Notes: generated by a model from the letters alone, not told the origin. 64,000 bases of DNA from an uncultured delta proteobacterium (GCA_963841435.1 CAWJCS010000003.1:96001-160000); one strand, 5' to 3'. Positions 15,977 through 62,783 are shown, numbered from the stretch's first letter. Translations and numbers: made by a program.

Positions 15977-15992
15977 TGGCCCGCGTCTTGCT
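15977..15992 (+). promoter_or_regulatory. sigma54-type -24/-12 promoter
   Basis: TGGCCCG-CGTC-TTGCT upstream of the DUF4398-ompA-CDF operon. Confidence 0.75.
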
Positions 15993-16020
15993 GACTGATC
16001 GGGGCAAGAAAGGAAACACC

Positions 16021-16404
16021 ATGCGACTGACAAGTCTGCATCTGCTCGGAACCGCGCCGCTCGTGCTGGGCTTGGCCTGCGGCGGAGCTTCACTTCCGGC
16101 ACCGAAGGTCACGGAAGCGGAGTCTGCCGTAAGCGCTGCCGACGCAGTCGGCGCGGAGAACAATCCGCAAGCCGCGTTACATCTGAAGATGGCGCGGGAT
16201 CAGCTGGCCGAGGCCAGGAAAATGGTCGAGGACGGTAAAGAGGACGAGGCGCGGCTGGTGCTCGAGGGAGCAGAAGCCGACGCGAACCTCGCGCTCATGC
16301 TCACGCGTGAAGCGGACGCCCAGGCGCGCGCACGAGAGGCACAGAAGCAAGTGCGTGACCTTCAGGCGAGCGCCGACCAGACCCAATCCACCCAGACCCA
16401 GTAG
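16021..16404 (+). CDS. DUF4398-type lipoprotein
   Basis: Lipobox LGLAC; AESAVSAADAVGAENNPQAALHLKMARDQL...AEADANLA; RBS-like aaggaa. Confidence 0.8.
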   Translation: MRLTSLHLLGTAPLVLGLACGGASLPAPKVTEAESAVSAADAVGAENNPQAALHLKMARDQLAEARKMVEDGKEDEARLVLEGAEADANLALMLTREADAQARAREAQKQVRDLQASADQTQSTQTQ

Positions 16405-16430
16405 ATACCGGGACAAAAAGGACTTTCGTC

Positions 16431-17321
16431 ATGAGACAGCTTTTTCTGGCTCCGTTCGTGATTACTGCCGTGGCCTGCGCCAGCACCGCGCCGTCCAGGG
16501 AGCTCGTGGACGCGCGCCACGCCTATGACCAGGCCCGCGCCTCCCACGCCTCCGAGTACGGTCCGAATCGCGTTCTGGAGGCCAAGCAGGCTCTCGATCG
16601 CGCCGAGGCCGCCCACGCGGATGACCCGGGCTCTTTCCAAGAGAAACGCCTCGCCTACGTGGCGCATCGCGACGCACAAATCGCCCAAGCGTACGGCGAC
16701 TTCGCGTACGCGAAGGGCAACAAGGACGAGGCGCACAAGGCCTACGTCGCCGAGCAGGATAGGCAGCGGCGCGCGGCCGAGGCCGAGGCGGCAAGGCGCG
16801 GCGAACAGCTTGAAGAGGCACGCGATCAAATCGCGACCCAGAAGAGCAGTCTCGCCACGGAGCGGGCGGCGAGAACCAACGCCGAACGCCGAGCGGACGC
16901 CGCAGTCGCCAGTCTGAAGAAGCTCGCCCAGGTCAAGGAGGACGAGCGCGGAACGGTGATCACGCTCGACGGCTCCGTGCTGTTTCTAACAGGCAAATCG
17001 GAGCTGTTGCCGCTGGCCAAGCAGAAGCTCGACGACGTGGCGAAAGCGCTCGGCAACCTCGAAGACGAGCAGTCGATCACGGTCGAGGGCTATACGGATT
17101 CGCGCGGCTCGGCTGACAACAATCAGAAGCTGTCCGAAGCGCGCGCGCAGGCGGTTCGTTCGTATCTGGTGGAAAAGGGCGTCAAGGCGGACCGGATCAA
17201 GGCGGTCGGTAAGGGTGAGACCGATCCCGTGGCGTCCAACGACAACTCAGAGGGACGCGCCAACAATCGTCGCGTCGAGATCGTCATCGGTAAGCAAGGA
17301 ACGAAATCGACGACGAGCTAG
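16431..17321 (+). CDS. OmpA-family lipoprotein (DUF4398 + coiled coil + OmpA C-terminal domain)
   Basis: VEGYTDSRG, NQKLSEARAQAV, GRANNRRVEI. Confidence 0.9.
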   Translation: MRQLFLAPFVITAVACASTAPSRELVDARHAYDQARASHASEYGPNRVLEAKQALDRAEAAHADDPGSFQEKRLAYVAHRDAQIAQAYGDFAYAKGNKDEAHKAYVAEQDRQRRAAEAEAARRGEQLEEARDQIATQKSSLATERAARTNAERRADAAVASLKKLAQVKEDERGTVITLDGSVLFLTGKSELLPLAKQKLDDVAKALGNLEDEQSITVEGYTDSRGSADNNQKLSEARAQAVRSYLVEKGVKADRIKAVGKGETDPVASNDNSEGRANNRRVEIVIGKQGTKSTTS

Positions 17322-17342
17322 GGGCGGACGCGCGGACCTGCG

Positions 17343-18290
17343 ATGGCCGAAGAAGGCAAGCCACGACCCATCGCGGTGTACGGCGCCCTCGCGGCCAACC
17401 TGGGGATAGCGGTCGCGAAGTTCGTGACCGCCACCGTTTCCGGCAGCTCCGCCATGCTCGCGGAAGGCATCCACTCGATCACCGACAGCGGCAACGAGCT
17501 CCTTCTCTTGCTCGGGCTCCGCTTGAGCCGCAAGCCGCCGGACGAACAGCATCCGTACGGTCACGGTAAGGAGCTCTATTTCTGGAGCCTGATCGTCACG
17601 CTCGTCCTGTTCTCCGTCGGCGGGGGAATGTCCATTTACGAAGGCATTCAGCACCTTTTCAAGCCCACCCCACTGGAAGATCCGACTGCGAACTACGTCG
17701 TGCTCGGCATCGCCTTCGTGTTCGAAGGAAGCTCGCTCTTCGTCGCGGTGCGCGAGCTACGCCGCACGAGCTGGCGCGGGTCGCTGTGGCGCTCGGTGCG
17801 CGCGAGCAAGGACCCGTCCGTGTTCGCGATTGCCGGAGAGGACTCCGCGGCGCTCGTAGGGATCGCACTTGCTTTTTGTGGGATTGTTCTGTCGCACGCG
17901 ACCGGACTTCCCGTATTCGACGCGCTGGCGTCGCTCTTGATCGGCCTCGTGCTCTGCGCGGTGTCGGTCTTCCTGGCGGGCGAATGTCGCGCCCTCTTGG
18001 TCGGCGAGAGCGGGTCGCGCGAGCTCGTCGGCGACATCCGGCGCGTGGTGGCCGGTGACCCTGCCGTTCGGCGGGTGGGCAACCCCCTCACCATGCACCT
18101 CGGACCGCGCGAGGTGCTCCTCAACTTGAACGTCGATTTTCGACCGGATCTCAACGTGGATGACCTGCGGGACGCCATCGGCCGCATCGAGCGCGACGTC
18201 CGCCGAGCACGACCCGAAGTGACCCGGATCTTTCTCGAGTCCGCTTCACTGCAAGTTCCGACCACCGAGCACGCGCGGGGCTCAGGGTAG
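17343..18290 (+). CDS. Cation diffusion facilitator (CDF) family transporter
   Basis: GSSAMLAEGIHSITDSGN, HPYGHGKELYFW, EDSAAL. Confidence 0.9.
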   Translation: MAEEGKPRPIAVYGALAANLGIAVAKFVTATVSGSSAMLAEGIHSITDSGNELLLLLGLRLSRKPPDEQHPYGHGKELYFWSLIVTLVLFSVGGGMSIYEGIQHLFKPTPLEDPTANYVVLGIAFVFEGSSLFVAVRELRRTSWRGSLWRSVRASKDPSVFAIAGEDSAALVGIALAFCGIVLSHATGLPVFDALASLLIGLVLCAVSVFLAGECRALLVGESGSRELVGDIRRVVAGDPAVRRVGNPLTMHLGPREVLLNLNVDFRPDLNVDDLRDAIGRIERDVRRARPEVTRIFLESASLQVPTTEHARGSG

Positions 18291-18442
18291 GGTGAACTCG
18301 TAGGCTGGATCGACTTCCAGCGCCCCAGGAGCGCTCTCGTCTGCCTCCGCGCGGCCCTCGGGAATGACCGCGTGTGTCGCGGCTGTTTGGGGGGCCTCTT
18401 CGTCGTCGCCGGCCCATTCGAAGAGGCCGACGCAGGGCTTGG

Positions 18443-18964
18443 TCATTTCATCGTCGGGGGCGCCGTAGCGCGGAAGGGGCGGGGCTTCGTTCGGGGTGTC
18501 TCCATTGCGGGAAGAGGGCTGGGGGCTGGCGACAAGTCGCCGGACAATACGTGGTCGAGGTGCTCCGCCAGAGTCAGGCGGTCGACTGCCGAGATCCGGA
18601 CGAGTTCGAAGGCGTGGCGCTGCGCGATGCTGCGCACGGGGCGCGCGACGACGCGGACGGGCGAGGTCGCGCCGGGAACGAAGAGGTCGAGGCCGTAGCG
18701 CTGATCGGAGCGGAAGACCAGGCGCCCGCGGCGACCGACGAATTCCAGCACGACGCCGGTCGCGGAGAGCTCGACCGCGATCGCGTACGCGCTGCTGCTG
18801 CGGCCGGACAGGAGAGCCCAGCAGTGCGTCGGCAAGCGGAGGCCGAGCCGCCGTTGTCGCCGGTGCCCAAAGGCGCCGAAGTCGACCGCCGGGAGGTCGT
18901 CGATGCGGGCTAGGATCGCTTGCCAGGCGCGGTCGAGCTGCGCGAGTTCTTCGAGTTGACTCAT
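18443..18964 (-). CDS. PilZ-like domain protein
   Basis: RRQRR (RxxxR) followed by ELSATG (D/NxSxxG variant) and a beta-rich remainder. Confidence 0.6.
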   Translation of the reverse strand: MSQLEELAQLDRAWQAILARIDDLPAVDFGAFGHRRQRRLGLRLPTHCWALLSGRSSSAYAIAVELSATGVVLEFVGRRGRLVFRSDQRYGLDLFVPGATSPVRVVARPVRSIAQRHAFELVRISAVDRLTLAEHLDHVLSGDLSPAPSPLPAMETPRTKPRPFRATAPPTMK

Positions 18965-18977
18965 CGCACAGGCACCG

Positions 18978-18993
18978 TGCAGCTTCCGGGCCA
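18978..18993 (-). promoter_or_regulatory. sigma54-type promoter
   Basis: Minus strand TGGCCCG-GAAG-CTGCA, 13 nt before ATG 18964. Confidence 0.65.
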
Positions 18994-19386
18994 CGTTGCG
19001 TCGGGCGTCCAGGGCCCTCGTTTAGCGTCTTCCGTGCGTCATTGTGCCACGCGCGTGCAAGACCGCCCGCGACGCGCCGCCACTCGGGCCGCCACCGGCT
19101 CGGTTTGCTCGAGCCAATTCGCGAGCCCCTCTAGCGCGCGATCCTGACGCTTCCCAGGCCACCCGCTGAGCTGCCGCCCGTGCCGCCGAGGCCTGCGGGG
19201 CCTCCAAAGGTCCCCCCGACTCCGTCGCTGAGCTGCGCGACGGCGGGCCTGATAACGGTCTCTTGGTGCTCGGGTTCGGCGGAGCTAGGTCGTCGCTTGT
19301 CGAGCGCGAGCGGGGCGTTTTGGCTGAGGTGGGTCAGCGGTACGCGCGAATCTCGGCATCAGCGCCGAAACGCGAGGGGCGACGCG

Positions 19387-19402
19387 AGGCACGAAATCTG
19401 CA
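19387..19402 (+). promoter_or_regulatory. sigma54-type promoter
   Basis: AGGCACG-AAAT-CTGCA, 11 nt before ATG 19414. Confidence 0.7.
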
Positions 19403-19413
19403 CGATGCCGGGC

Positions 19414-19653: not shown

Positions 19654-19826
19654 GAAAGAGAGCGCCGGCAGCGTGGTAGCGCGCGAGCTGGTCCCCTTGC
19701 GGCTCGCGCGCGAAGCGCTGGACATCTGGCGAGAGGCCGAAGTCGGGGCGGACGGCTCACGAGGTCCAGGGTGACGTGCTTGCCGAGGAGCGTCAGCGCG
19801 CCGCGCACGGCGTGCCCGGGCCCTAG

Positions 19827-20327
19827 CTACTTCTTCGCGGCTTCGTAGCGCGGCAGGAGCTGCTCGGCATGGTCGGAACCGAGTGCCTCCTGCGCTCGCG
19901 GAAAGAATTCGCCTTCTTCCTCGTCAACGTGGCTCTCGACCAACTCGACGAGCTGGTCGAAGGCACGCTTCCACGCGTCCGAGCGGATGGCCTGCGCGTC
20001 AACTTCCGCAATGGCTGCCTCGAGCTCTTGAGCCTCTTCTGCGTGCTGCGCGGAAATGGCGGCCGTTTCGGGAAACTCGGCAATTGCGGGATAGACGACC
20101 GCGAGCTCGCCTTTCTCGTGGGACAAGAGCTCCTTACGGATCGTCGGGTAGAGCTCCTCGCGGACTTTCGGGTCCGAGCTTGCCTTCACGCGCTTGAGCA
20201 ACGAGCCGACTTTCCCGTGCTCCTCCATCAGGTGCATGAAGACTCCGCTCAAACCCTTCATGCCGGCTTTCACGTCCTTCATTGCCCCTCTGGCCTGTGA
20301 GGCCAAATTGTCCGTCGTTTTCAACAT
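19827..20327 (-). CDS. Hemerythrin-domain protein
   Basis: EEH...HEKGELAVVYP...HAEEA...HVDEEEGEFFP pattern. Confidence 0.85.
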   Translation of the reverse strand: MLKTTDNLASQARGAMKDVKAGMKGLSGVFMHLMEEHGKVGSLLKRVKASSDPKVREELYPTIRKELLSHEKGELAVVYPAIAEFPETAAISAQHAEEAQELEAAIAEVDAQAIRSDAWKRAFDQLVELVESHVDEEEGEFFPRAQEALGSDHAEQLLPRYEAAKK

Positions 20328-20387
20328 AGCGCTCCCTGCTTTCGTGATGGCGATTGCTTCTCGTTGGCAATCGCGAGCGGAACCACA

Positions 20388-20403
20388 AGCAACGGTCGTG
20401 CCG
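20388..20403 (-). promoter_or_regulatory. sigma54-type promoter
   Basis: Minus strand CGGCACG-ACCG-TTGCT upstream of the hemerythrin gene; hairpin GCGATTGC/GCAATCGC (20350-20374) in the predicted 5' UTR. Confidence 0.75.
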
Positions 20404-20764
20404 CAGGCGTTCTTGGAACGACGGTAGAGCGAGACCCGGGGCGCTCCCGAATTCGGGAACACTGGCGTCGGGCTGTGGCGGCCAGTCTGCCTCGGCGCGA
20501 CAGGCTGGTACGGCTGGGGTCGCCGTCGAAACCGAAGCACGACGGCAGGGCGATGGCCGGCCCTGCGACCGTCCTCACGGAAAGCGGCGCCACTCGTCGT
20601 CCAGTCACGGCGCACGACGGCATCGCGCTCGACCCGACGAGCGCTGCGGGTTGGCTGGCTGCCACGCTGGAGGAAGCCATTCGGGCCCTAGCGCCTCGCG
20701 CAGCCACGGAGGATGCATACGAGGGCGGCGCAATCAGCTCGCTGTGAGCTGATTCCTTCGTTGT

Positions 20765-21157
20765 TCAGGACTCGCCGCGCTGGGGGGCCGAAGCCGGCGC
20801 CGGAGGTGCGGCGGGCAGCGCGGCGATGGCCCGTCGCACGACGAGTCGCACCAAAGCGGTGGCGAGGGAGCCCGCCAAAGCACGGGCGAATTTTTGGCCG
20901 AGCGAAGCTTCCGACACCCAACGTAGCCTCATGCGTCGGGGTTGGGCGGCCGCTCGCACGAGCAGGGCCAGCCCGGCGCCCGTTAGTATCCCGGCCGCGA
21001 CGAGCGCCGGCTTGGCCTCGCGCAGGGCCTTGCTCAAGGCTTTGCGTCCGTCCTCCGACACGCTCGCCAGATCGGCGGCGAGCGCGGCGCGCGCGCGCTC
21101 GGCCTCGCGCGCAGCCGAGTTGACGGTCGCCGACATTGAGTTCAGGCTATGTTCCAT
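20765..21157 (-). CDS. DUF3618/DUF883-like membrane-anchored small protein
   Basis: AREAERARAALAADL helix followed by a TM segment; sits downstream of the YqjE-like gene. Confidence 0.55.
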   Translation of the reverse strand: MEHSLNSMSATVNSAAREAERARAALAADLASVSEDGRKALSKALREAKPALVAAGILTGAGLALLVRAAAQPRRMRLRWVSEASLGQKFARALAGSLATALVRLVVRRAIAALPAAPPAPASAPQRGES

Positions 21158-21524
21158 GCGGTTTCCTCGTTGCTGGAGGGTCGAAAGCTGAGTCTGCGTG
21201 TCGGCTCTGCAGGTCCTTGAGACCTCGAAGCGCAAAGAGGAGGAGCACCGCGGCGGCTCCCAGCGGCAGCGCCACCCAGGACAACGCCAGAAACCATCCG
21301 GCGCGCGGGGCCGAGGCGGGCGAAAGCACGACGGCAATCACGGCGGCTTGCATCAAGGAGCTCGCCAATAGCACCAGGACCAGGACCTTCAGGGCGCCTG
21401 CCAGGAACGCCTTCGCGTGCGCCAGCACCAGCTTGATCTCGGCGTGCGCCAGCTCCGTCGCGCTCTCGGCGACCCGGGCCAGGTGCGCGGCCGATTGCGC
21501 CTCGGTTCCGCTCTTGTCGGTCAT
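21147..21524 (-). CDS. YqjE/'phage holin family'-like membrane protein
   Basis: ELAHAEIKL motif followed by two TM helices; typical gene order with the DUF3618-like gene. Confidence 0.6.
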   Translation of the reverse strand: MTDKSGTEAQSAAHLARVAESATELAHAEIKLVLAHAKAFLAGALKVLVLVLLASSLMQAAVIAVVLSPASAPRAGWFLALSWVALPLGAAAVLLLFALRGLKDLQSRHADSAFDPPATRKPHGT

Positions 21525-21556: not shown

Positions 21557-21859
21557 TCAGTAGCCAGGTGGATCACTGGCAGGGAACGATTCCCAGCTTG
21601 CTTCGTCCACGCGATCGCGCGTGCCTGCTTGGAAGCCTTGGCGGGCCCGAGTGCGCAGGACACGAACGCGCGGGTGCTGGCGGGCCTGCTCGAGCAAGAG
21701 GTAGGTGCCTGCCACGCCAGCCGCGAGGCCAATCCAGCCACTCTTGAGGATTCCCAATGCCAGAAGGACCAGCCCGCCCGACGCAATGACCCCGCGTCCT
21801 AGGCCGCTGTGGGGCTCGGTGGCGCGCCCTACCGCCATGATATCGAACGTCTCGGACAT
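21557..21859 (-). CDS. Small membrane protein with C-terminal DEASxESFPASDPP motif
   Basis: Two short TM segments; ends RVDEASWESFPASDPPGY. Confidence 0.7.
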   Translation of the reverse strand: MSETFDIMAVGRATEPHSGLGRGVIASGGLVLLALGILKSGWIGLAAGVAGTYLLLEQARQHPRVRVLRTRARQGFQAGTRDRVDEASWESFPASDPPGY

Positions 21860-21911
21860 CTCGACCTCTCTTTCCGCGCACTCTCTCGACGGAGCTTTCG
21901 CGGAAGGGCCG

Positions 21912-21927
21912 TGCAGATTTCATGCCC
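21912..21927 (-). promoter_or_regulatory. sigma54-type promoter
   Basis: Minus strand GGGCATG-AAAT-CTGCA. Confidence 0.7.
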
Positions 21928-22007
21928 GGAGCGCCGAGCCGGACTTTCGCCGCGCACTCGTTGCGCAAGGGCTCACCCGACGCAGGGAGCCGCGCGCCCA
22001 TGAGCTC

Positions 22008-23044: not shown

Positions 23045-23113
23045 CATGCTGCGCGAGCGACAGCGAGGCGATTCTGTTGCGTGCTGCGAGGCGCCGGGAC
23101 GGAGCGATCGGGA

Positions 23114-23129
23114 TGGAACGCTCCATGCA
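23114..23129 (+). promoter_or_regulatory. sigma54-type promoter
   Basis: TGGAACG-CTCC-ATGCA before the YihY-like gene. Confidence 0.6.
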
Positions 23130-23143
23130 AGCCGCGAATCGTG

Positions 23144-24220: not shown

Positions 24221-24353
24221 CGGCACTCGCACCCTCTTTGGTGCAAGCAACCGCTGGCTCGAACGCACCAGGGCGAGGCTCGAGTGACCGCGTTGGAGGT
24301 TGCTGCGACGGCGTTCGAGGCATGCGGTCGGCGCGGTGGGCCACCAAGGTCTT

Positions 24354-24369
24354 TGGCCCGGAGCTTGCA
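24354..24369 (+). promoter_or_regulatory. sigma54-type promoter
   Basis: TGGCCCG-GAGC-TTGCA upstream of the YtxH-like gene. Confidence 0.75.
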
Positions 24370-24415
24370 ACTCTCGAAGTCGTCCCAACCATCCACCCCA
24401 ACCGGAGGCTCGAAG

Positions 24416-24772
24416 ATGAACACGAAGAAGTTGCTAATGTCACTCGGCGCAACGATCGCGACCAGCCAAATCGCGAAGTCCATTTCCAACGTCACTGCGG
24501 ACGACATGCTCGGCACGGTTGGCCTTGCACGGCGCAGGAGCCACCTGCTCGAAAACATTGGGCTAGTCGCGCTGGGCGCGGCAGCGGGCGCCGGTGTGGC
24601 GTTGCTGCTGGCTCCCGAGAGTGGCACCGAGACGCGTCGCCGCATCGGACGCAAGATGGACGAGCTCGGCGAGAAGGCCAGCGAGGCGGCCCAAAACGTG
24701 AGGCACCAGCTGCCGAACCTCGAGTCAATGCCCTCGACGAGCAACCAAGGGAACACCCACATTCACGGGTGA
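24416..24772 (+). CDS. YtxH-domain protein
   Basis: GAAAGAGVALLLAPESGTETRRRI motif; RBS ggagg. Confidence 0.85.
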   Translation: MNTKKLLMSLGATIATSQIAKSISNVTADDMLGTVGLARRRSHLLENIGLVALGAAAGAGVALLLAPESGTETRRRIGRKMDELGEKASEAAQNVRHQLPNLESMPSTSNQGNTHIHG

Positions 24773-25233
24773 GGGCGTGGTTGCGAGCGCGCCGTTCGCT
24801 CTCGCTTCCGCGAACACGGATCGACCGTCGAGGCCGACTGGCAGAAGCCATCGCGCGCGACAGCCGCGCTGAAAGTGCTGAAAGAACTTCGCGCGTGGTC
24901 CTTCGCCGCGCGGTTTCCCGTGCGCAGGCCTCGCTCGGTCGTGTTGGCGACAGCCACTCATCGCGTGCAACACGAACAGCGCCAGAGCGATCCAGCCTTG
25001 CGGCAGTCTCTGCCACGGCCCCAGGCCGAGGTGCACGCTCGCCCCCGGCCACAATGTGAGATCCGCCGATCAGGCTCGACTGCAGCGGCGCCAGTGAGGC
25101 ATACCGAAAACGCCACGCTGCGGTGCGGGGTCAATAGCAGTGAGGCGCGCTGCAACGAAGGGGCAACCGCCCTCCACTCATTTGCGGCGATAGTTGCCGA
25201 TGTAGCAAGTGCGAAATCTGATCCTTTTCGAGG

Positions 25234-25249
25234 TGGATCGAGAGTTGCA
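25234..25249 (+). promoter_or_regulatory. sigma54-type promoter
   Basis: TGGATCG-AGAG-TTGCA before kinase ATG 25267. Confidence 0.6.
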
Positions 25250-25266
25250 GCGTGCGTGGCGTTAAC

Positions 25267-26839: not shown

Positions 26840-27136
26840 TCAAACGAGCAGGATCACGATGATGACGCCGAGCAGCACGACGATCGCTGCCGTCGCGCTG
26901 ATGACGACGACGTCACCACCACGAAAGTTCGCTGCTTCTTTCGCAATCGCTTCTCGAATCGCATACCGCTCCTCGTCGGACAAGGGTCCGGTCGACGTGC
27001 GTGGGATGCGGATGACGTGAGTCGATCCCCTGGCGGGCGCCCTCTCCACGAGTGACGTGGAGAGTCTCGCTTGCGCCGGTGCGGCAGCAAGGGAGAGCAT
27101 GAGCGAGCCGATCAGCATGACTCCGAGCTTTTTCAT
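26840..27136 (-). CDS. Putative C39-peptidase substrate: Sec signal + Gly-Gly motif + 24-aa hydrophobic tail (PA2779-like architecture)
   Basis: MKKLGVMLIGSLMLSLAAAPAQA|...YAIREAIAKEAANFRGG|DVVVISATAAIVVLLGVIIVILLV*. Confidence 0.75.
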   Translation of the reverse strand: MKKLGVMLIGSLMLSLAAAPAQARLSTSLVERAPARGSTHVIRIPRTSTGPLSDEERYAIREAIAKEAANFRGGDVVVISATAAIVVLLGVIIVILLV

Positions 27137-27149
27137 GCTCCGACTCCAG

Positions 27150-27165
27150 TGCAAGCGACGTGCCG
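27150..27165 (-). promoter_or_regulatory. sigma54-type promoter
   Basis: Minus strand CGGCACG-TCGC-TTGCA in the 36-nt gap between peptidase stop and precursor start. Confidence 0.75.
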
Positions 27166-27172
27166 CGACCCT

Positions 27173-27781: not shown

Positions 27782-28007
27782 GACGCCGAACCCAGTGGAA
27801 GCAGGTGCCACAGCGACCCGAGACGAAAATGGAGCCTGGATCATGGCGCCCACTCCGCAAGAAACGGGCCCGCGCGGGGACGCGGTGGGTGCAACGCCAG
27901 CCGCGACCAATCCCGCTTCGCCGTGGGGCAAGGCCGCCACGTCGCGGGTGCGAGACCTCGTCCCATGACCTGATCGAGGGGCAGCGGACGCCGCGCCTTC
28001 CGCGCTT

Positions 28008-28023
28008 CGGCCCGTGCCTTGCT
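28008..28023 (+). promoter_or_regulatory. sigma54-type promoter
   Basis: CGGCCCG-TGCC-TTGCT before the relic at 28039. Confidence 0.65.
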
Positions 28024-28038
28024 TGGTCCAGGTCCGAC

Positions 28039-29469: not shown

Positions 29470-29605
29470 TCCACGGAGTCACTGCCCCGGTAAACGGCGA
29501 GCGCCAGAAGGTTCATGATCGGGAGGACCCGCGCATGACGAGCACCACCGTGCAAATTGGGCGCTCCGCCCGATCGCACGCCGGCGAGCGAACACGAGTA
29601 GCGGG

Positions 29606-29621
29606 TGCAGGGGGCGTGCCA
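29606..29621 (-). promoter_or_regulatory. sigma54-type promoter
   Basis: Minus strand TGGCACG-CCCC-CTGCA upstream of the Omp85-like gene. Confidence 0.65.
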
Positions 29622-29890
29622 GCTCGCACCCGCACGAAGACTCGCTTCAATGCAAGGAGCGCAAGGTGGCTTGCGCCGTCGAGCGGGGAGCCTCGCCTCA
29701 CCGTCCCAAAAGCGCCATGGCGCACGCCCGCCCCGGGGAACGGGGAGCACGGGTAACGTTCCCGGAGAGCGCCGACGCGAGCCATCATCGCGCCAAGGAA
29801 AATCGCGCTGGGAAAAGCGTAGCGATGCCGCTCGGGGCGATCTGCCTCGCGCGCGCCGAGGCCCCTCTGAACCCCCTGGCACCGCCGCCT

Positions 29891-29906
29891 GGGTATGTGC
29901 CTTGCA
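29891..29906 (+). promoter_or_regulatory. sigma54-type promoter
   Basis: GGGTATG-TGCC-TTGCA before pqiA. Confidence 0.65.
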
Positions 29907-29923
29907 GCGTTGAACGCGACGTG

Positions 29924-33544: not shown

Positions 33545-33567
33545 CCCGGCATCGTCCGAGCTCGCGT

Positions 33568-33583
33568 CGGCACGAGTCTTGCG
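33568..33583 (+). promoter_or_regulatory. sigma54-type promoter
   Basis: CGGCACG-AGTC-TTGCG before the antiporter gene. Confidence 0.7.
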
Positions 33584-33614
33584 CGTATCGCGCGCTGGAG
33601 ACGGATTCCGACCG

Positions 33615-34820: not shown

Positions 34821-34936
34821 CGGGACACTCGTCGCTATTTGCCACGGCGTGGCACGTCTGCCTCGTCACGATACCCACGCCGTGTCTCTCTTGCCCCACT
34901 TCGCTTGCCGAGGCGAACACGATACGCCGCTCCGAC

Positions 34937-34952
34937 CGGTACGCCGTTTGCA
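34937..34952 (+). promoter_or_regulatory. sigma54-type promoter
   Basis: CGGTACG-CCGT-TTGCA upstream of actA. Confidence 0.65.
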
Positions 34953-35002
34953 GCCCGTCGCGCGCCAACTCGCAAGCCCCATGTTGCGCAGTTGTCCACC
35001 CG

Positions 35003-42637: not shown

Positions 42638-43746
42638 GCGAGCCGCTCTACGACCTCTTCCGCCGGCTGCTCTTCTTGCCCCCGGCTGGCACCGAGGTCG
42701 CTCGCGAGAATCGACCATCTGCACTTCTTCGTCATCAGCGTGACGATGCTCGGTGCGCTCTCCGTGTTCCTCGTCGCGCTCTGGTTCGTCGTTCGCTACC
42801 GAAAGCGGCCCGGTGAGAGCAGCACCCCGCACATCGTCGCGCGCCCCGGCGTCGAAGTCGCGACGGGGGCTCTCTTGCTCACCCTCTTCATCGTGTGGTG
42901 GGTCATCGGATTCCGACAGTACGTCACCCTGGCGACCCCTCCGGAAAAGGGGATCGAGACCTACGTCACGGCCAAGCAATGGATGTGGAAGTTCGCGCAC
43001 GCGAACGGCAGAAGCAGCGTGGGCATTCTGGTCGCCCCGCGGGGCAAGACCGTGCGCCTGCTCATCACGTCGCGCGACGTGATCCACAGCTTCTACGTGC
43101 CCGCTTTTCGGCTCAAACAGGACGCGGTGCCGGGTCGCTACACCTCGACGTGGTTCCGGGCGACGCGCACCGGCAGCTTCCCGATTTACTGCGCGGAATA
43201 TTGCGGCGTCGGGCATTCTCGCATGTGGGCGCGCGTCGTCGTCGTCGAGCCCGAGGACTACGAGCGCTGGCTGGACGGCGAGGTGCCGAAGGCCGTGGCG
43301 GAAGCAAGCGCCGAGGTCAGCTACGCCGTGAGCGTCACCGGGGGAGAAGGCGAGAGTCTCGCAGCCCGCGGACGCGAGGCGGCTGCCAAGCACGGCTGCT
43401 TCGCGTGCCACACGATCGACGGGCAGCGCCACGTCGGCCCGAGCTTCGTCGCGCTCTTCGGCAGCAGCGTCACGCTCGAAAGCGGTGAGCGCGTGATCGC
43501 GGACGAGAGCTACCTCACCGAGAGCATGATGGACCCCGCGAGCAAGGTAGTGCGCGGCTTCGCGCCCGTCATGCCGACGTTTCGCGGCCGCCTCTCGCAA
43601 CCGGACGCCGCGGGCATCGTCGAGTTCATCAAGTCGTTGAAAAACGAGCGCCCGCAGCCCGCGGTACCGCTACCGCGCGTCGAAGCCACCCCCGACACCA
43701 AGACTCCGACCGCGCCTGCCGCGGCGACGGCAGAGAGAGGGGCGCC

Positions 43747-46309: not shown

Positions 46310-46361
46310 GGCGAATTGCCTCGAGAAATGCCCGTTTCGCACGTCTTGAGAGCTCGCTCTC

Positions 46362-46377
46362 CGGTACGGAAATTGCT
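46362..46377 (+). promoter_or_regulatory. sigma54-type promoter
   Basis: CGGTACG-GAAA-TTGCT, 11 nt before ATG 46389. Confidence 0.7.
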
Positions 46378-46388
46378 GCATCCTCGGC

Positions 46389-50135: not shown

Positions 50136-50160
50136 CGGACCTCCTTGTCGGAGGGGTCCG

Positions 50161-50176
50161 TGCAACCCGTGTACCT
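50161..50176 (-). promoter_or_regulatory. sigma54-type promoter
   Basis: Minus strand AGGTACA-CGGG-TTGCA. Confidence 0.6.
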
Positions 50177-50253
50177 GCCGGTCGCGCGCCAGAGCGCCCA
50201 ATTGGCGCGCCAATCTGCCCCGGTCGGACCATCTCGCCACCACACGCGCTCGC

Positions 50254-51261: not shown

Positions 51262-51284
51262 TCGTCTCCTTCGTCCGCCTGCGT

Positions 51285-51300
51285 TGCATCACGCGTGCCG
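51285..51300 (-). promoter_or_regulatory. sigma54-type promoter
   Basis: Minus strand CGGCACG-CGTG-ATGCA. Confidence 0.7.
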
Positions 51301-51383
51301 CGCACCGGGGTCGCGCACGTCACGGCATCGCCCCACTCGCATTCGCCACAGCGGGGCATGCTGCGACCCTGACGCCCGCCCAC

Positions 51384-51878: not shown

Positions 51879-51926
51879 TCCTACATCATCCGATTTCGGC
51901 GTCAACATTGGCGTCTTGCAATCCGC

Positions 51927-51942
51927 AGCAAACGCCATGCCG
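51927..51942 (-). promoter_or_regulatory. sigma54-type promoter
   Basis: Minus strand CGGCATG-GCGT-TTGCT. Confidence 0.7.
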
Positions 51943-51958
51943 AGCCGAACGGCCACGC

Positions 51959-51974
51959 TGGCACGCGTGATGCT
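51959..51974 (+). promoter_or_regulatory. sigma54-type promoter
   Basis: TGGCACG-CGTG-ATGCT, 13 nt before ATG 51988. Confidence 0.75.
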
Positions 51975-51987
51975 TCGCGTTCGGCCC

Positions 51988-58300: not shown

Positions 58301-58523
58301 CACCGGACGGCAGGCGTTGCACTTTGCCGAAGTGGTGGAGCTGGCGCTCGAGCACGGGTCCAACGGGCCACCTCGAGCGGAACCGCCCGAGGCCGGACCC
58401 CGAGACGCACAGCGGCTCGACGTGCGGCGGTCGATGTGGCGAGCCGGCACCGCGCTGGCGGCGGGGGCTCTCGCCGTCCTCGGCGCGACGCTGCTCGCCT
58501 CGAGCAAGGACGCACGGCGTTGA
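55371..58523 (+). CDS. FAD-binding + Fe-S oxidoreductase (YdiJ/GlcD-GlcF-like)
   Basis: RGGGTSLAGQ, GSEGT, SGEHGDG, CVGVGKC, CLACKGCKRDCP, CCG motifs; C-terminal TM. Confidence 0.92.
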   Translation: MRSLVHPVQTENTARRPRTALPVLDGRRAPAERHDSDVFWSHLAASVQGDVRSDAGTRGLYSFDASNYQHVPLGVVLPRSEADVLTTLGACREAGVPVVCRGGGTSLAGQAVNEAVMLDFSRYMTEILGFDPASRSATVEPGVICDALQALARPHGLQWGPAPATHDRCCFGGMLANNSGGMHAQESGIAVHHVQAMRVALADGSVMDLGWMDEESLRAAARRDGSEGRVYRELAEFRERHAQLIAERLPKLPRRVSGYNLDQLLPGPDGRFNVARALVGSEGTCATMLQATVGLVPSPRRRLVVVAGYDSVFDAGDDVTLLGEFAPLAVEGMDKRLYDHVTKKHMRGERYLDLLPLGHGWLLVELGSDDGAELEDRAEHLMEKLRRSASAPLELRLVRERDQQEHLWKVRESGLGATAFVPGEPDAWPGFEDSAVPPERLGAYLRDLGELFRRYDYSPSLYGHFGMGCVHCRVGFDLTSAGGVAKYRRFMQDAVQLVRRHEGSLSGEHGDGQARGELLGALFGPELYQAFREFKAIWDPDGRMNPGRIVDARPIDRDLRLGPGYDPEEPPTHFHFLEDNGSFARATLRCVGVGKCRRREATGPEDVMCPSFMATGEERHSTRGRARLLWQMLQPNGNPIRGGFQDENVKEALDLCLACKGCKRDCPVGVNMATYKAEFLAHYYRGRLRPRQATAFGHIDRWAALMSVAPGLANLVTQSRIGAPFAKAVAGVARSREIPPFAGETFRAWFARHAPPAAPRKRVLLFTDTFTNHFEPGIAKAAVRVLEHAGYEVEIPPRQVCCGRPLYDYGLLDDAKEHLETVLSTLDPWLTAGAPIVVLEPSCASVFRDELGALLPGRVSGQRLAAQTQLLDELLTRDAMARLPKLRRKALVQGHCHHKSVLGFDAAKKALSALELDAEVLASGCCGMAGAFGFEPDKQEVSLACGERSLLPSVREAAEDTLIVADGFSCRQQIGQNTGRQALHFAEVVELALEHGSNGPPRAEPPEAGPRDAQRLDVRRSMWRAGTALAAGALAVLGATLLASSKDARR

Positions 58524-58537: not shown

Positions 58538-61500
58538 TCACTGCGATTGGGTGTTGCGGCGGGGCAGGCGAACCACGAACGCCGTTGATTCGTTCCCGGA
58601 AGAGACATCTATCGCGCCTCCGTGGGCGCGCACGATCTCCCTCACGATGAAGAGGCCGAGGCCAAGACCTCGTGAGCGCTGGCGTCCGACGCGGGTGGTC
58701 CGAAACGGATCGAACAGATGCGGCAGGACTTCGGGCGAGATGGTCCCCACGTTGCGGACCTCCACGCGCACCTCGTTTGTAGCCTTGCCGTCCAACCGCA
58801 ACAGGATTTCCTCGTCGGGACGTCCGTGTGCCCCGGCGTTCGCAACCAGATTGGAGACGATCTGCATCAAACGGTCCCCGTCCCAGCTCCCGGTCAAATC
58901 GCCGTTGGACTCGGTACGAATCTTCCATGCGGGGTAGGCGACCTGGAGCTCACCCAGGGCCTGTGCGCAGAGCTGAACGAGGTTGATTGGCCGTGGTTGC
59001 ACCTCGATGCCACCCCCCGTCCGCGCGCGGGTAAAGTCGAGGAGCTGCTCGATCATGCGCTGCATGCGCTGTCCGCTCCCGATGATGCGGCTAACGGCCT
59101 TCACCTCAGGCCCGTCCATCCCGGCTTCGCCCTTGCGATGCATGAGCAGCAGCTGGGCTCCGTTCATGATCGCCGCGAGCGGATTCAAGAGGTCATGCGC
59201 CAGAACCCCAGCAAAAAGTTCGTTGGCTCTAATGGTGTCCTCGAGGCGTGACACCGCCGCGAAGCGCGCGATCACCGATCCGAGGTGATTCGCAATTGCC
59301 CGAGCGGTGCCCACCTCGTGCGACGCAAACGAGTGCGGCTCGTCATAGTAGACCATGAACTGTCCGAGAAGGCGGCGCCGGGCAACGAGCGGGATGAACG
59401 CCAAGGCGCCGATCCCTTCGCGCTCGAACAGCGGGCCATACGGGCTCATTGCGGGATCGTTCTTCACGTCCGGCACGAGGACCGGCTCAGGTGAGGTTGC
59501 ATCCGCTGGCCACGGGGAGTGGCCTTCGACCGCAGCGCGATACGCCTCCGAAAGGCCGCGCCAGGCGACGAAGCGCATGACACCGGTCCGATCGAGCGTG
59601 AGCACCGATGATCGAGTCACCCCCAGCGCAGCGTGAATCCCATCGAGCGCCGCGTCCAGAACCGTTTCGACCTTGTCGGCAGCAACGACGGCTGCGGCGA
59701 ACTTGTACAGGTGTTCCGCCCGGCGTCGGCCGTTCACGTTTTCCTGAAACAGCTGCGCGTTCTCAATCGCCGCGGCGGCACGTTCAGCCAATTGTTCGAC
59801 GAGATCCAGATCGGCCGCGGTATACGTCTCGCCGGGTCGCGTGCGCGTGGTCGTGACCGTGCCGATCACCTGACCGCGCGAGCGGAGCGGAGCGCAAATC
59901 ATGGCGTAGCTCGGATGGCGCTCGAGAAATGCGCGGTATGCCGGGGCCACGCGATCGAGCAGCTCGACCGGGTCGAGATTCGCAATCATCTGGCTTTTTC
60001 GGGTCGCTGCCACGACCCCCGTAACGCCCTCGCCCAAGCGCAGCGGCGACCTGGCCATGACTTCCTTCAGGAGCGCGCCAGCTTTCGCGTCCGGATGATA
60101 AGCCGCGCGGCCATGCAGGAGGCCGTCCTCCTCGAGAAGGTTGATACCGACGCAACTTTCGAGGCTCGTTCCGAGCTCGCTCACGATCGCTTCGATCCGA
60201 GGTCCGAGTTCCAGATCGGTTTCAACGAAGGCACGCGATGCCCGACTCAGTACGCCCATGCGATGGGCGGTGGCGTCCGCTTCGTTCCTCGCGCGACGTT
60301 CGGCATCGAAGAGCCGCAGGCGCTCGACCGCTTGGCTCGCGTAGCGCGCGGCGAGAAGCAAGAGCGCCTGAGCTTCGTCATCCTTGTCGCCCACCTCCGG
60401 AAGCGTGAGAGCAACGCCACCGAGCACCTTGCCGCGTGCTACGAGCGGTAGGCAGCACACGGCATAGTCGCGATCAGGTGAGACGAGGGGCTCGATGTGC
60501 GGATAGAGCCGAACGAGCTCCGCTTGTGACTCGATCCAGATCGCCTCTCCGCAGCGCATCGCGTCAAGCGCGGGTATCGGCAAGGAGGCATGGAGCGGAA
60601 TCGTCTCGATCTGGCGCCTCGCGTGCGCCGAGTATCCGATCGCACGCATGAGCCGCGCCGTCTGCGTCTCGTCGTCGACGAGCCAGAGCGCGGCACTCGT
60701 TGCAGCCAGAGCCTCGTGGACGCGGTCGACCAGCGCGACGAACACCTCTTCGCTCGTGACCGCCTCGGCGATCGCAGCAGTGATCTTCGAGAACCTCGTG
60801 ATGCGGTTGGCAGCGTGCTCGCGAGAGCGATCGAAGACTTTGCGTTCCGAGATGTCGGTGACGAGGGCAATGAAGCCGTGCACTGTGCCGTCTGCCGACT
60901 CGTGCGGCACGTAGGTCCCTTCGATGAAGCGTGCACCGCCGTGCGGGTAGGGGATCTCCGCCTCGAACGTGACCTCTTCTCCCCGCAATGCGCGCTCGGC
61001 GTACGGGAGGATGCGGTCGTAGCCATCGACCCCGACAATCTCCCGCAAATGCTTGCCGACGACGTAGCCGGGGGGGAATGCGAACCAACGCTCGTACGCA
61101 GCGCTGGCGAACCGGTACCGTTGCTCCGTGTCCACGTAGGACACCAGCGAGGGCAGGGCATCGGCAATGAGCTGCAGTTGCTGCGACTCAGCACGATGGA
61201 GCGCGGCCCCGTCGGAATGGGACGGCTCGCGGCCCGCAGGTGGGACCTCGGCAGGTGTCCCGTACGAGCGCAGCACGAACGGTTCCCGACGCCCCCCAAA
61301 CTCGCTGCACAACTCCTCGAGCAAGATCGCGGCGCCGCGCTTCCCCTGCCTCCAGAGTACCGCCGCCATGTCACCACAAAGCCTGACGCCACGTCCCTTC
61401 GAACCCATGGGCGATGCGTCGAAGAGCCGCCCGATCTCGGCCTCGAAGAGGCGCGGTTCGGGGACGCCATCGCGCATGATCCTCGACAATAGGTCGTGGG

Positions 61501-61732
61501 CGTCGACGCGCACGAACCGCCCGTGCCTTTCCTCCGCGGCCAGGTCGCAGCCTTCGCCGTCCAGACGTCGCTGGAACGTTCCCAGATAGTCGGACGTCGC
61601 GATCACGGCGACACGGTCCCCGGTGCAGAAGCCCTGCTGCGCGAACCTCACGTCAGCGTCAACGAGCAACTTCTCGTCCTGCAAGAGTCGGACGAGATCA
61701 TCGAGCGGGCTGTCCGCCGGGGCGAACGACAT
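58538..61732 (-). CDS. Sensor histidine kinase: MEDS-like + PAS + three GAF + HisKA + HATPase
   Basis: VRLCGDMAAVLW..G...AAILLEE (MEDS); LVSYVD..QRYRF (PAS); three GAF-like segments; AHDLLNPL; GLGLGLFIV. Start uncertain. Confidence 0.88.
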   Translation of the reverse strand: MSFAPADSPLDDLVRLLQDEKLLVDADVRFAQQGFCTGDRVAVIATSDYLGTFQRRLDGEGCDLAAEERHGRFVRVDAHDLLSRIMRDGVPEPRLFEAEIGRLFDASPMGSKGRGVRLCGDMAAVLWRQGKRGAAILLEELCSEFGGRREPFVLRSYGTPAEVPPAGREPSHSDGAALHRAESQQLQLIADALPSLVSYVDTEQRYRFASAAYERWFAFPPGYVVGKHLREIVGVDGYDRILPYAERALRGEEVTFEAEIPYPHGGARFIEGTYVPHESADGTVHGFIALVTDISERKVFDRSREHAANRITRFSKITAAIAEAVTSEEVFVALVDRVHEALAATSAALWLVDDETQTARLMRAIGYSAHARRQIETIPLHASLPIPALDAMRCGEAIWIESQAELVRLYPHIEPLVSPDRDYAVCCLPLVARGKVLGGVALTLPEVGDKDDEAQALLLLAARYASQAVERLRLFDAERRARNEADATAHRMGVLSRASRAFVETDLELGPRIEAIVSELGTSLESCVGINLLEEDGLLHGRAAYHPDAKAGALLKEVMARSPLRLGEGVTGVVAATRKSQMIANLDPVELLDRVAPAYRAFLERHPSYAMICAPLRSRGQVIGTVTTTRTRPGETYTAADLDLVEQLAERAAAAIENAQLFQENVNGRRRAEHLYKFAAAVVAADKVETVLDAALDGIHAALGVTRSSVLTLDRTGVMRFVAWRGLSEAYRAAVEGHSPWPADATSPEPVLVPDVKNDPAMSPYGPLFEREGIGALAFIPLVARRRLLGQFMVYYDEPHSFASHEVGTARAIANHLGSVIARFAAVSRLEDTIRANELFAGVLAHDLLNPLAAIMNGAQLLLMHRKGEAGMDGPEVKAVSRIIGSGQRMQRMIEQLLDFTRARTGGGIEVQPRPINLVQLCAQALGELQVAYPAWKIRTESNGDLTGSWDGDRLMQIVSNLVANAGAHGRPDEEILLRLDGKATNEVRVEVRNVGTISPEVLPHLFDPFRTTRVGRQRSRGLGLGLFIVREIVRAHGGAIDVSSGNESTAFVVRLPRRNTQSQ

Positions 61733-61994
61733 CGTACTTGAACTGCCGAGCATCGGGCTCTCCGCAGGCACGTGGTCAGCGACCTTAACCACTTGGCACC
61801 CTAGTGCAAGACGAAAGCGGCGCCTTCCGGAATCTACACGGATGAACGGATGTTTCTCCCTGGGCCTTCGGGGTCGCGCGCCCAGTCCTAGCCCACACAC
61901 CGGATTTCGCCAGGCTATCGGCGGGAGTCGAGATTGCGGATCCCGCCGCTTGAACCAGGCGCGCTGCGATCAGAGCCGCGGGTTTGCGGGCGAG

Positions 61995-62131
61995 ATGCTG
62001 AACTTCAATCATCTCCAACTTCCACGTCCACGGCGTTCCACGGCTCGCAGACCGACGCCGCGGAGCAACTCGGCGTCACGCAGCCCACCGGAAGCGAGCG
62101 GATCCGCATGCTCGAGCGTTCGCTCGGCTGA
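61995..62131 (+). pseudogene. Relic of an NhaR-like LysR regulator HTH
   Basis: MLNFNHL / FHV / TAFHGSQTDAAEQLGVTQPTGSERIRMLERSLG* spread over frames, then no similarity. Confidence 0.7.
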
Positions 62132-62315
62132 TGAGACAGTCTGCCATCGGGGGCGTGGCAACTTTGCCACACCGACGCTCGTTTCGTTCACGCAGCAGGA
62201 GTGCAGGCGTTCGCGCGCCTGCCGGCGCGAAGGGCTCCGCACGATGCCTCCTCAACGAAGCAAGGTGCCGCCCTCGGCTCGCGCCCGGGCCCCGCGGCCG
62301 TCGTGGGGCCCGGAC

Positions 62316-62729
62316 TCAGCGCGGGGCCTGAAATTCTCCCGTGATCTCGTTCGGCGGTGTGTATGCCGGCACGGTCGGATCAGGGTCGGGAACCGCCTTG
62401 CCGGAAGCGTCGAACCAAACGCTCTTTGCGAAGAGCAGCCTTCCGTCGTCGGTGTAGTGCGACACCCAGGGGGCGAGGCGACTTGCCACGTGTGCACTCA
62501 CCCACCCGCCACGCCGCCACACGTATTGGGTGCGTGCCCAGTTCCAGAAACCGTCGACCCACAAGAAGTCACCCGCCGGCTTCGGCGGCACGGTCTCCAC
62601 GAGTGCTGCCGGTGGGGGATAGGGCACCTCGACGAAATCGCTTTTCGGGTGATCGGCGTGCGCTGGGACGGGGAGCGAACTGCCACATCCGGTGAGCAGG
62701 AGAACGAAAGGGAGCAGACGACGAAACAC
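62316..62729 (-). CDS. Lipoprotein with Pro-rich and WxxGxW (YXWGXW-like) repeats
   Basis: LLTGC; VPYPPPAALVE; WVDGFWNW..YVWRRGGW. GTG start chosen because ATG 62759 lies inside the sigma54 motif. Confidence 0.75.
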   Translation of the reverse strand: MFRRLLPFVLLLTGCGSSLPVPAHADHPKSDFVEVPYPPPAALVETVPPKPAGDFLWVDGFWNWARTQYVWRRGGWVSAHVASRLAPWVSHYTDDGRLLFAKSVWFDASGKAVPDPDPTVPAYTPPNEITGEFQAPR

Positions 62730-62747
62730 TGTGCGGAGTGAAACCGA

Positions 62748-62763
62748 AGCACGGTGCATGCCA
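62748..62763 (-). promoter_or_regulatory. sigma54-type promoter
   Basis: Minus strand TGGCATG-CACC-GTGCT. Confidence 0.65.
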
Positions 62764-62767
62764 GTGC

Positions 62768-62783
62768 TGGCCCACGCCTTGCA
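62768..62783 (+). promoter_or_regulatory. sigma54-type promoter
   Basis: TGGCCCA-CGCC-TTGCA, 12 nt before ATG 62796. Confidence 0.7.

Follow-up and report, generated by a model that had tools for sequence, protein, structure and literature searches.

A dense, conserved cluster of predicted sigma-54 promoters in a Polyangiales chromosome

The window analysed here is a 64,000-nucleotide (nt) stretch from an uncultured delta proteobacterium (GCA_963841435.1, CAWJCS010000003.1:96001-160000; in our numbering G000:C3:96001-160000). Between positions 15975 and 62785 of this window, almost every transcription unit has its own sigma-54 (RpoN) promoter, and the region is a chromosomal neighbourhood, not a mobile island. 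Judged from the sequence, the motifs are genuine, conserved sigma-54 promoters. With about 23 predicted promoters, compactly arranged and conserved, the neighbourhood indicates envelope, ion and oxygen functions as sigma-54 targets in the Polyangiales, an order that has been little studied. The genome comprises 7.78 Mb in six contigs, with 68.7% G+C. The host fits a soil myxobacterium of the order Polyangiales, and one soil-metagenome DNA run contains 5% of the sampled words of the sequence; among RNA runs, none was found to contain it.

Density and placement of the promoters

The window was scanned with the consensus TGGCACG-N4-TTGCW, in which GG and GC stand exactly 10 nt from each other, and at most two mismatches were allowed. 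It holds 26 matches, whereas 100 shuffles gave 9.5 ± 3.0 and never more than 18. The genome average for a 64-kb window is 9.2 such matches (standard deviation, sd, 3.9), and the maximum of 26 is the present window. When at most one mismatch is allowed, 84 of the 125 matches in the genome are intergenic and aimed at the next gene, though 86% of the genome is coding.

For scoring, a weight matrix of 20 columns was built in four refinement rounds from intergenic co-oriented sites only. The region C3:80-180 kb was left out of the training, and the matrix is therefore independent of the finding in the window. Genome-wide, it yields 174 to 271 upstream co-oriented sites, depending on the threshold (271 at ≥12 bits); the 174 found at ≥14 bits compare with 109 in all coding sequence on both strands. 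Between 15975 and 62785, 23 co-oriented sites precede genes, with 19 at ≥12 bits and four at 9.3-11.3 bits, while intragenic sites at ≥12 bits number only two (53321- and 55776-). By a hand calculation, the match rate in coding sequence, 3.4e-5 per base-strand, corresponds to about 0.3 expected sites in the approximately 8 kb of upstream space. The stretch holds 15-16 upstream co-oriented sites per 48 kb, as compared to a genome mean of 1.7-2.3 (sd 2), and with thresholds of 10 or 12 bits this count is not reached in any other 48-kb stretch. The cluster also extends beyond the window: a site of 20.1 bits precedes an OmpA-like gene at C3:165937, and another, of 16.4 bits, lies at C3:178080.

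An initial annotation of this DNA had listed 22 -24/-12 motifs, each just upstream of and co-oriented with a gene, an operon or a relic, and had proposed a shuffle comparison and an enrichment analysis of position and strand. The independently trained matrix agrees with this count, all 23 of its sites are placed in this manner, and the results of both analyses are in line with the annotation. The two pairs of motifs described as near-identical are also real: 19385+ and 21910- are identical at 17 of 20 positions, and 51283- and 51957+ have the common core GGCACGCGTGATGC, with 14 of 14 positions matching. The likeness is confined to the promoter core, and the proteins downstream of 19385+ and 21910- are unrelated. 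Promoter duplication was considered as the origin of the cluster and rejected, as there are no repeats beyond the promoter cores.

The second densest sigma-54 stretch of the genome is C5:457000-503000, which at ≥14 bits holds 10 sites, against 9 in the present stretch. An activator gene (C5:478156-479556) lies in it, as does a COX1-family gene located 13 nt downstream of a 16.5-bit site, and one of the sites in this stretch has the same GGCACGCGTGATGC core as the window sites 51283 and 51957.

The 23 sites and the genes behind them are listed below, together with one kinase gene, by position in the window and strand. ORF denotes an open reading frame, and spacings to the ATG are counted from the end of the 20-mer.

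15975..15994, +, sigma-54 promoter, 14.9 bits, ACTGGCCCGCGTCTTGCTGA; DUF4398 lipoprotein ATG 26 nt downstream; unit of DUF4398 lipoprotein (16021-16404), OmpA-like (16431-17321) and CDF cation efflux (17343-18290) genes
18976..18995, -, sigma-54 promoter, 12.2 bits; ATG 12 nt after; 173-residue protein of no known family (18443-18964)
19385..19404, +, sigma-54 promoter, 14.8 bits; 82-codon ORF to 19653 (ATG 19405 or 19414), no family
20386..20405, -, sigma-54 promoter, 18.4 bits; before hemerythrin (19827-20282)
21910..21929, -, sigma-54 promoter, 13.8 bits; three small genes (21557-21859, 21147-21524, 20765-21157)
23112..23131, +, sigma-54 promoter, 12.2 bits; before BrkB/YihY-family membrane protein (23144-24220)
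24352..24371, +, sigma-54 promoter, 15.3 bits; before YtxH-like protein (24416-24772)
25232..25251, +, sigma-54 promoter, 12.6 bits; before Ser/Thr protein kinase (25267-26574)
27148..27167, -, sigma-54 promoter, 16.9 bits; ATG 12 nt after; 98-residue protein, no family (26840-27136)
27854..27873, -, weak sigma-54-like site, 9.3 bits; ATG 10 nt after; peptidase C39-like protein (27173-27844)
28006..28025, +, sigma-54 promoter, 14.8 bits; only a 33-codon ORF (28039-28140) downstream
29604..29623, -, sigma-54 promoter, 16.9 bits; 195 nt before Omp85-superfamily gene (28216-29409)
29889..29908, +, sigma-54-like site, 11.0 bits; ATG 16 nt after; PqiA (29924-31186), protein start MHAPHEIACCHDCGL, followed by two MlaD/MCE genes (31183-32935) and a PqiC-like lipoprotein (32932-33654)
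33566..33585, +, sigma-54 promoter, 17.4 bits; within the 3' end of the PqiC-like ORF, before Na+/H+ exchanger (33615-34820)
34935..34954, +, sigma-54 promoter, 13.7 bits; 91 nt before alternative complex III (ACIII) operon (35045-42637)
42685..42704, +, weak and doubtful sigma-54-like site, 9.4 bits, TCGC for TTGC; cytochrome c oxidase subunits II, I, III, IV (42740-46309)
46360..46379, +, sigma-54 promoter, 14.6 bits; ATG 10 nt after; 72-residue membrane-like ORF (46389-46607), followed by FAD monooxygenase (46627-47817) and DUF4396 (47814-48518)
50159..50178, -, sigma-54-like site, 11.3 bits; before six-BON-domain protein (48540-50135)
51283..51302, -, sigma-54 promoter, 13.5 bits; before short-chain dehydrogenase (SDR; 50254-51261)
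51925..51944, -, sigma-54 promoter, 15.8 bits; before single-BON protein (51384-51878); back to back with 51957
51957..51976, +, sigma-54 promoter, 18.6 bits; ATG 12 nt after; ASRT-family protein (51988-52362), followed by TPP enzyme PRK08273/pyruvate-oxidase-like (52448-54235), MR/MLE enolase (54232-55374) and YdiJ-like FAD/FeS oxidase (55383-58523)
58538..61900, -, orphan sensor histidine kinase, MEDS-PAS-GAF x3-HisKA-HATPase
62746..62765, -, sigma-54 promoter, 17.7 bits; before WXXGXW lipoprotein (62316-62729); possibly reads into the histidine kinase
62766..62785, +, sigma-54 promoter, 12.5 bits; before TamA-like Omp85/POTRA gene (62841 to beyond the window) and TamB-like gene

The genes were called with a codon-usage caller trained on long ORFs with high GC3; the starts are approximate, and several were corrected by eye. 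Sites 18976-, 27854- and 29889+ first scored within coding sequence, and were reassigned because an in-frame ATG 10-16 nt downstream gives a sensible product.

Conservation in relatives

Are these promoters kept where the surrounding DNA is not? The relatives are 46 same-genus metagenome-assembled genomes. Because the genus is broad, with orthologues 40-68% identical in protein sequence, intergenic DNA is effectively randomised among them. The hemerythrin gene has a co-oriented site at ≥12 bits in 25 of 29 genomes and at ≥9 bits in 28 of 29, and 27 of these 28 sites are located 59-89 nt before the start of the match. The ASRT gene has a site in 7 of 10 relatives, and four of them keep the back-to-back pair corresponding to 51925/51957. 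Among nine copies of the six-BON protein, six have a site within about 80 nt, a seventh lies behind a site heading a putative operon, and the remaining two are an ambiguous copy and a copy without a site; one of the positive genomes belongs to another family, and the sites in the relatives are stronger than 50159- (11.3 bits). In the BrkB family, 14 of 25 loci have a site at ≥12 bits (4 of 11 closer orthologues and 10 of 14 in a more distant subfamily). The BrkB count covers 25 of 28 rows, as three were dropped, two of them for want of upstream DNA.

Two control genes scored in the same manner gave low counts: the LysR gene 2162-3091 has sites in 2 of 28 genomes, at scattered positions, and the amine-oxidase-like gene 12887-15631 in 1 of 7. 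The BON, OmpA, BrkB, USP and CDF families also lie behind sigma-54 sites in the loci of relatives. Conservation in relatives, another point that the initial annotation had proposed to examine, thus supports its reading of the motifs, and suggests that the promoters are functional for the stress-type genes.

Phasing of start codons

Many of the promoters stand at a fixed short distance from a start codon. Of the 271 upstream sites at ≥12 bits in the genome, 65 are followed by a coding ORF whose start codon lies 10-13 nt from the end of the 20-mer; among sites in non-promoter contexts, 19 of 502 have this spacing. The phase is also present outside the neighbourhood, with 59 of 253 sites at 10-13 nt and a peak at 11 nt (27 sites). 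ATG accounts for 53 of the 65 phased start codons (82%), as compared to 57% among all called genes. If the C of the GC is taken as -12, the start codon has its A at about +2 to +5 for offsets of 10-13 nt, and at +3 for the 11-nt peak, leaving at most a few bases of leader. Such a sharp phase would follow from transcription starting about 12 nt downstream of the GC.

In the neighbourhood, starts lie 10-14 nt after promoters 18976, 19385, 23112, 27148, 27854, 28006, 46360 and 51957, and 16-17 nt after 25232, 29889 and 62746. In the wider region C3:111-179 kb, 6 of 18 starts are at 10-13 nt and two more at 17 nt. The 10-13-nt spacing is kept in six ASRT orthologues. These spacings imply that about a quarter of the genome's predicted sigma-54 promoters are placed to yield leaderless or near-leaderless mRNAs. 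A literature search covering titles and abstract openings, together with passages of PMC3616915 and PMC12754779, found no report of sigma-54 promoters coupled to leaderless starts. If confirmed, the phasing would tie leaderless translation to a class of promoters that depend on activators.

Activators and the search for a shared enhancer

The sigma-54 holoenzyme binds promoters as closed complexes, and their opening needs ATP hydrolysis by an AAA+ enhancer-binding protein (EBP). The cluster raises the question of which one or more activators, encoded elsewhere, fire its approximately 23 promoters, and whether they depend on enhancers. The genome has one rpoN (single PF04552 match, C6:1626847-1627326). 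It has 52 PF00158 matches, 40 of them at ≥125 bits, which correspond to about 40 activator genes. The genome profile search found no PF00158 activator in the window or anywhere in C3:96001-202719, in accord with the earlier statement that none is on board. Closest to the window, about 42.7 kb beyond its end, is the gene for an FHA-AAA+-HTH protein at C3:202720-204153, which lies beside a Ser/Thr kinase. All 36 activators that could be mapped to gene calls (four could not) keep 140-185 residues after the ATPase domain, and therefore a DNA-binding domain is probably present in each of them.

Two further proteins were noted in this search. A 773-residue protein with a long membrane N-terminus is encoded at C3:171588-173909 (L002:13588-15906), 11.6 kb past the window end. 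Its C-terminal region weakly resembles the activator ATPase and lid (E about 1e-7), with no Walker A and no GAFTGA; it was excluded from the activator count and may be a degenerate, membrane-anchored activator relative. A 331-residue activator at C3:300814-301287 has 16 residues before its ATPase domain and no regulatory domain, a PspF-like build.

The syntenic cluster of one relative, G051, includes an FHA-type activator gene flanked by BrkB and a Ser/Thr kinase. The activator and the kinase beside it were rejected as leads: the best match to the activator in the present genome is 44% identical, at C6:1714668 in an unrelated context, and the best matches to the neighbouring kinase, at 54%, lie at unrelated places. 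There is no response regulator or activator beside the histidine kinase 58538..61900. Its orthologues in G043, G007, G003, G013 and G056 have neither of these in flanks of up to 11-14 kb (0.5-5.5 kb on two short contigs), and the one in G043 also lies behind a 17.2-bit site.

The promoters had been described as wired into one regulon, a reading that the analysis does not support. Searches of several kinds failed to find a common enhancer. Neither exact k-mers nor palindromic dyads and gapped 4-mer pairs upstream of the cluster promoters stand out (best p 4e-6 over 77,101 pairs), and no perfect 5-N(3-9)-5 palindrome is common to the promoters. The best motif of an (l,d) search covers 11-12 of 25 island promoters; in five sets drawn at random from the genome's other sigma-54 promoters, the coverage is 11-13 of 25. 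The sites of two known myxobacterial activators are not enriched in the window, with 14 loose matches to the NmpR-type GCGCA-N5-TGCGC against 13.2 expected per 64 kb, and 12 matches to the PexR-type CACCG-N6-CGGTG against 10.7 per 64 kb. Footprinting of 29 hemerythrin orthologue promoters found no conserved block; the only enriched words are the start of the neighbouring gene in close relatives and the weak words CGAAAAGC and AATTCGG. These failures remove the only sequence evidence able to support one activator, and do not disprove it.

Two single palindromes were seen in these searches. One perfect GCGCA-N5-TGCGC stands alone at 21952-21966, 23 nt upstream of promoter 21910-. The perfect 12-nt palindrome CCCGAATTCGGG, at 20446-20457, lies about 40 nt upstream of the hemerythrin promoter and does not recur in the window (3 matches, 5.0 expected).

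Genes behind the promoters

We assigned the cargo with Pfam and NCBIfam. The envelope group comprises OmpA-like, Omp85-type and TamA/TamB-like proteins, PqiA with two MCE proteins and a PqiC-like protein, the six-BON and one-BON proteins, YtxH and BrkB/YihY. A CDF exporter and the Na+/H+ exchanger relate to ions, and the hemerythrin, the alternative complex III, the aa3-type oxidase and the FAD monooxygenase with DUF4396 to oxygen and redox. In addition, there are a metabolic operon (ASRT-family protein, PRK08273 TPP enzyme, MR/MLE enolase and YdiJ-like FAD/FeS oxidase) and two signalling proteins, the Ser/Thr kinase and the MEDS-PAS-GAF histidine kinase.

The cargo named in the initial annotation is partly borne out. 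YtxH, BrkB/YihY, BON, hemerythrin, SDR and the pyruvate-oxidase-like enzyme were found by Pfam. The YqjE-like assignment is left with one sub-threshold match, a weak Phage_holin_3_6/YqjE-type hit (E 0.014) in the middle gene behind 21910- (21147-21524). General stress protein 26 (GSP26) has no Pfam match, and only the 33-codon ORF lies behind 28006. This ORF has no continuation in any frame, is probably the relic of a lost gene, and fits the relic that had been reported behind a motif. The spare respiratory chain stands in part. The ACIII/oxidase set is indeed a second copy, the other set lying at C2:884-897 kb with higher family scores and no sigma-54 site, but the oxidase promoter scores 9.4 bits and the ACIII site is not seen in two relatives.

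The term island does not hold in the mobile sense. The composition is ordinary (window GC 0.64-0.71, genome 0.687), a tRNA scan found none in the neighbourhood, and there are no long direct or inverted repeats. The gene order is partly common to G051, which keeps the order oxidase-ACIII-SDR-ASRT-TPP-MR/MLE-oxidase-BON-BON-BrkB. An Rfam search found no family. No integrase turned up in the Pfam scan of the window, no search aimed at integrases having been made.

Two of the promoters lie before genes with a particular history. The hemerythrin gene and its 18.4-bit promoter (window 19819-20538) are duplicated at C4:710113-710831 with 92.5% nucleotide identity, in a second small group of sigma-54 sites. 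The Na+/H+ exchanger gene appears to be recently gained, and already has its strong, 17.4-bit promoter.

A model for the cluster and its alternatives

We see an even chance that the cluster is a stress, oxygen-limitation or dormancy-type programme, switched in trans by a few of the approximately 40 activators and not by one master. In the mechanism that we propose, sigma-54 RNA polymerase would sit on the approximately 23 promoters as closed complexes, which would fire only once a remotely encoded AAA+ EBP hydrolyses ATP. The induced genes would build or protect the envelope, balance ions, and handle oxygen and redox. The two sensors, the GAF/PAS kinase and the Ser/Thr kinase, would themselves be sigma-54-controlled, and their location behind their own sigma-54 promoters suggests positive feedback. 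The inducing signals, the number of activators and this feedback are what we infer, and it is the gene content that would suggest the general-stress label. To our knowledge, myxobacteria have dozens of sigma-54 activators, and only small regulons are known, for few of them, in Myxococcus. We favour a few activators over one because the known myxobacterial activators control few promoters, the enhancer searches were negative, and the conservation differs between the stress and the respiratory genes.

Several points weigh against this model. The negative enhancer searches do not prove several activators, since the sites may be degenerate, distant or inside genes. The stress label comes from family names, and several small products belong to no family. 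Four of the 23 sites are weak, at 9.3-11.3 bits, and the gene starts come from our own crude caller. No site at ≥12 bits precedes the ACIII genes (including ActA) or the oxidase genes in the two relatives G051 and G018. The Na+/H+ exchanger 33615-34820 has no orthologue at E≤1e-40 in the 46 same-genus genomes, which speaks against reading the promoters as conserved.

An alternative is one master regulon, as the initial annotation had it. A single remote activator, perhaps fed by the on-board histidine kinase or the Ser/Thr kinase, would then fire the approximately 23 promoters together as a general stress response in the role of SigB, RpoS or EcfG. The extreme clustering in the densest stretch of the genome, the coherent functional theme and the fact that the sensor kinase and the Ser/Thr kinase in the cluster each have a sigma-54 promoter would suit such a regulon, as would the lack of a local activator, so that control must act in trans, and the FHA-type activator inside the syntenic cluster of G051. 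However, the promoters have no common upstream motif, the (l,d) search did no better than with random promoter sets, and no block is conserved before the 29 hemerythrin promoters. Dispensing with enhancers offers no obvious way out, since all 36 mapped activators keep their 140-185 post-ATPase residues and none is obviously enhancer-independent. Moreover, an activator beside the cluster was seen only in G051, and neither it nor its kinase has a clear orthologue here (best 44% and 54%). We consider this explanation unlikely.

The promoters could also be real without serving a common programme. The clustering would then reflect local gene turnover in a sigma-54-rich genome with about 170-270 promoters, in which genes acquire promoters or bring them along. 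The 174-271 upstream co-oriented sites genome-wide and the second dense stretch at C5:457-503 kb fit this explanation, and so do the Na+/H+ gene with its 17.4-bit promoter and no orthologue in 46 relatives, the hemerythrin gene duplicated with its promoter on another contig, the strong promoter before the 33-codon relic, and a gene order only partly common to relatives. Yet the cargo is far from random: envelope and stress families recur, and the same families lie behind sigma-54 sites in relatives. In addition, the density exceeds the genome mean by about 7 sd. On balance, the absence of any common programme is doubtful.

That the motifs are chance matches in GC-rich DNA or non-productive sigma-54 binding sites is highly improbable: four sites score 9-11 bits and similar scores occur inside genes genome-wide, but the shuffle control, the genome-wide position and strand bias, the 19 upstream against two intragenic sites, the conservation relative to the controls and the start-codon phasing (65/271 against 19/502) contradict it.

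In a more far-reaching reading, this Polyangiales lineage would use sigma-54 as its general stress or dormancy factor, and the neighbourhood would be the core of a large trans-activated regulon that remodels the envelope and turns on a spare respiratory chain. Many of the mRNAs would be leaderless, their promoters being placed for transcription to begin at the AUG. This reading is speculative, and we doubt that it holds as a whole. If it were true, stress could gate the transcription of the set together with its translation.

Comparison with known systems

The closest counterparts come from the Myxococcota. The available passages of PMC11841059 describe NmpR (NmpRSTU) of Myxococcus xanthus, an NtrC-type activator with a sigma-54 oxygen-utilisation regulon of seven promoters and 23 scattered genes, including its own operon. 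A hemerythrin, a universal stress protein and a cbb3 terminal oxidase are among the targets, and the regulon is read there as a low-oxygen response. The NmpR sites are pairs of GCGCA-N5-TGCGC, spaced by 5-50 bp and located no more than 500 bp upstream of the sigma-54 site (PMC11841059). As far as these passages go, the present cluster resembles the NmpR regulon in phylum, in its sigma-54 promoters and in its hemerythrin and terminal oxidase cargo. It differs in that it has no nearby activator, is three times larger, carries an aa3-type oxidase with ACIII instead of cbb3, and is not enriched in the NmpR motif.

PexR controls a peroxide regulon in Myxococcota: in the passages available from PMC12754779, it acts at ahpC, katB and pexR, at two or three promoters beside its own gene, via CACCG-N6-CGGTG repeats, and sigma-54 with a dedicated activator replaces the usual OxyR/PerR. 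If the stress reading of the cluster holds, the two would be alike as myxobacterial stress responses run by sigma-54. Unlike the PexR regulon as described there, the cluster has no peroxidase or catalase genes, and the PexR motif is not enriched. In these partial descriptions, both the NmpR and the PexR regulons are small and have the activator beside a target, whereas the present cluster has no activator nearby.

The general stress regulons of SigB in Bacillus, RpoS in Escherichia coli and EcfG in Alphaproteobacteria are switched by sigma-factor replacement. The likeness to these regulons is limited to gene content, as an overlap in the kinds of cargo: YtxH, BON/OsmY-like, YqjE-like (weak here) and OmpA-like proteins and small uncharacterised proteins. 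In contrast to them, an ATP-driven activator would switch each promoter in the present cluster, and GSP26 was not found.

The PspF/psp system is a sigma-54 envelope-stress system. Sigma-54 has been termed the 'controller of the bacterial exterior' (Francke et al. 2011, PMC3162934). As in that description, to the extent that the consulted part of the article gives it, and as in PspF/psp, the sigma-54 targets found here are concentrated on the envelope and outer membrane. The scale, and the clustering in one neighbourhood, set the present case apart from the same part of that article. No PspA/PspF pair turned up in the window, none having been searched for.

Other features of the neighbourhood

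Between 21860 and 23110 (about 1.25 kb), long ORFs run on both strands with poor coding scores and no Pfam match; they may be decayed genes. The DUF4398-OmpA pair (window 16007-17299) has a 79% copy at C2:514288-515565, starting just past the promoter. The TamB-like gene beyond the window appears to be split into a 1346-residue ORF with no Pfam match (L002:2895-6932) and a 154-residue ORF (L002:7096-7557), the latter of which matches only the C-terminal end of TamB.

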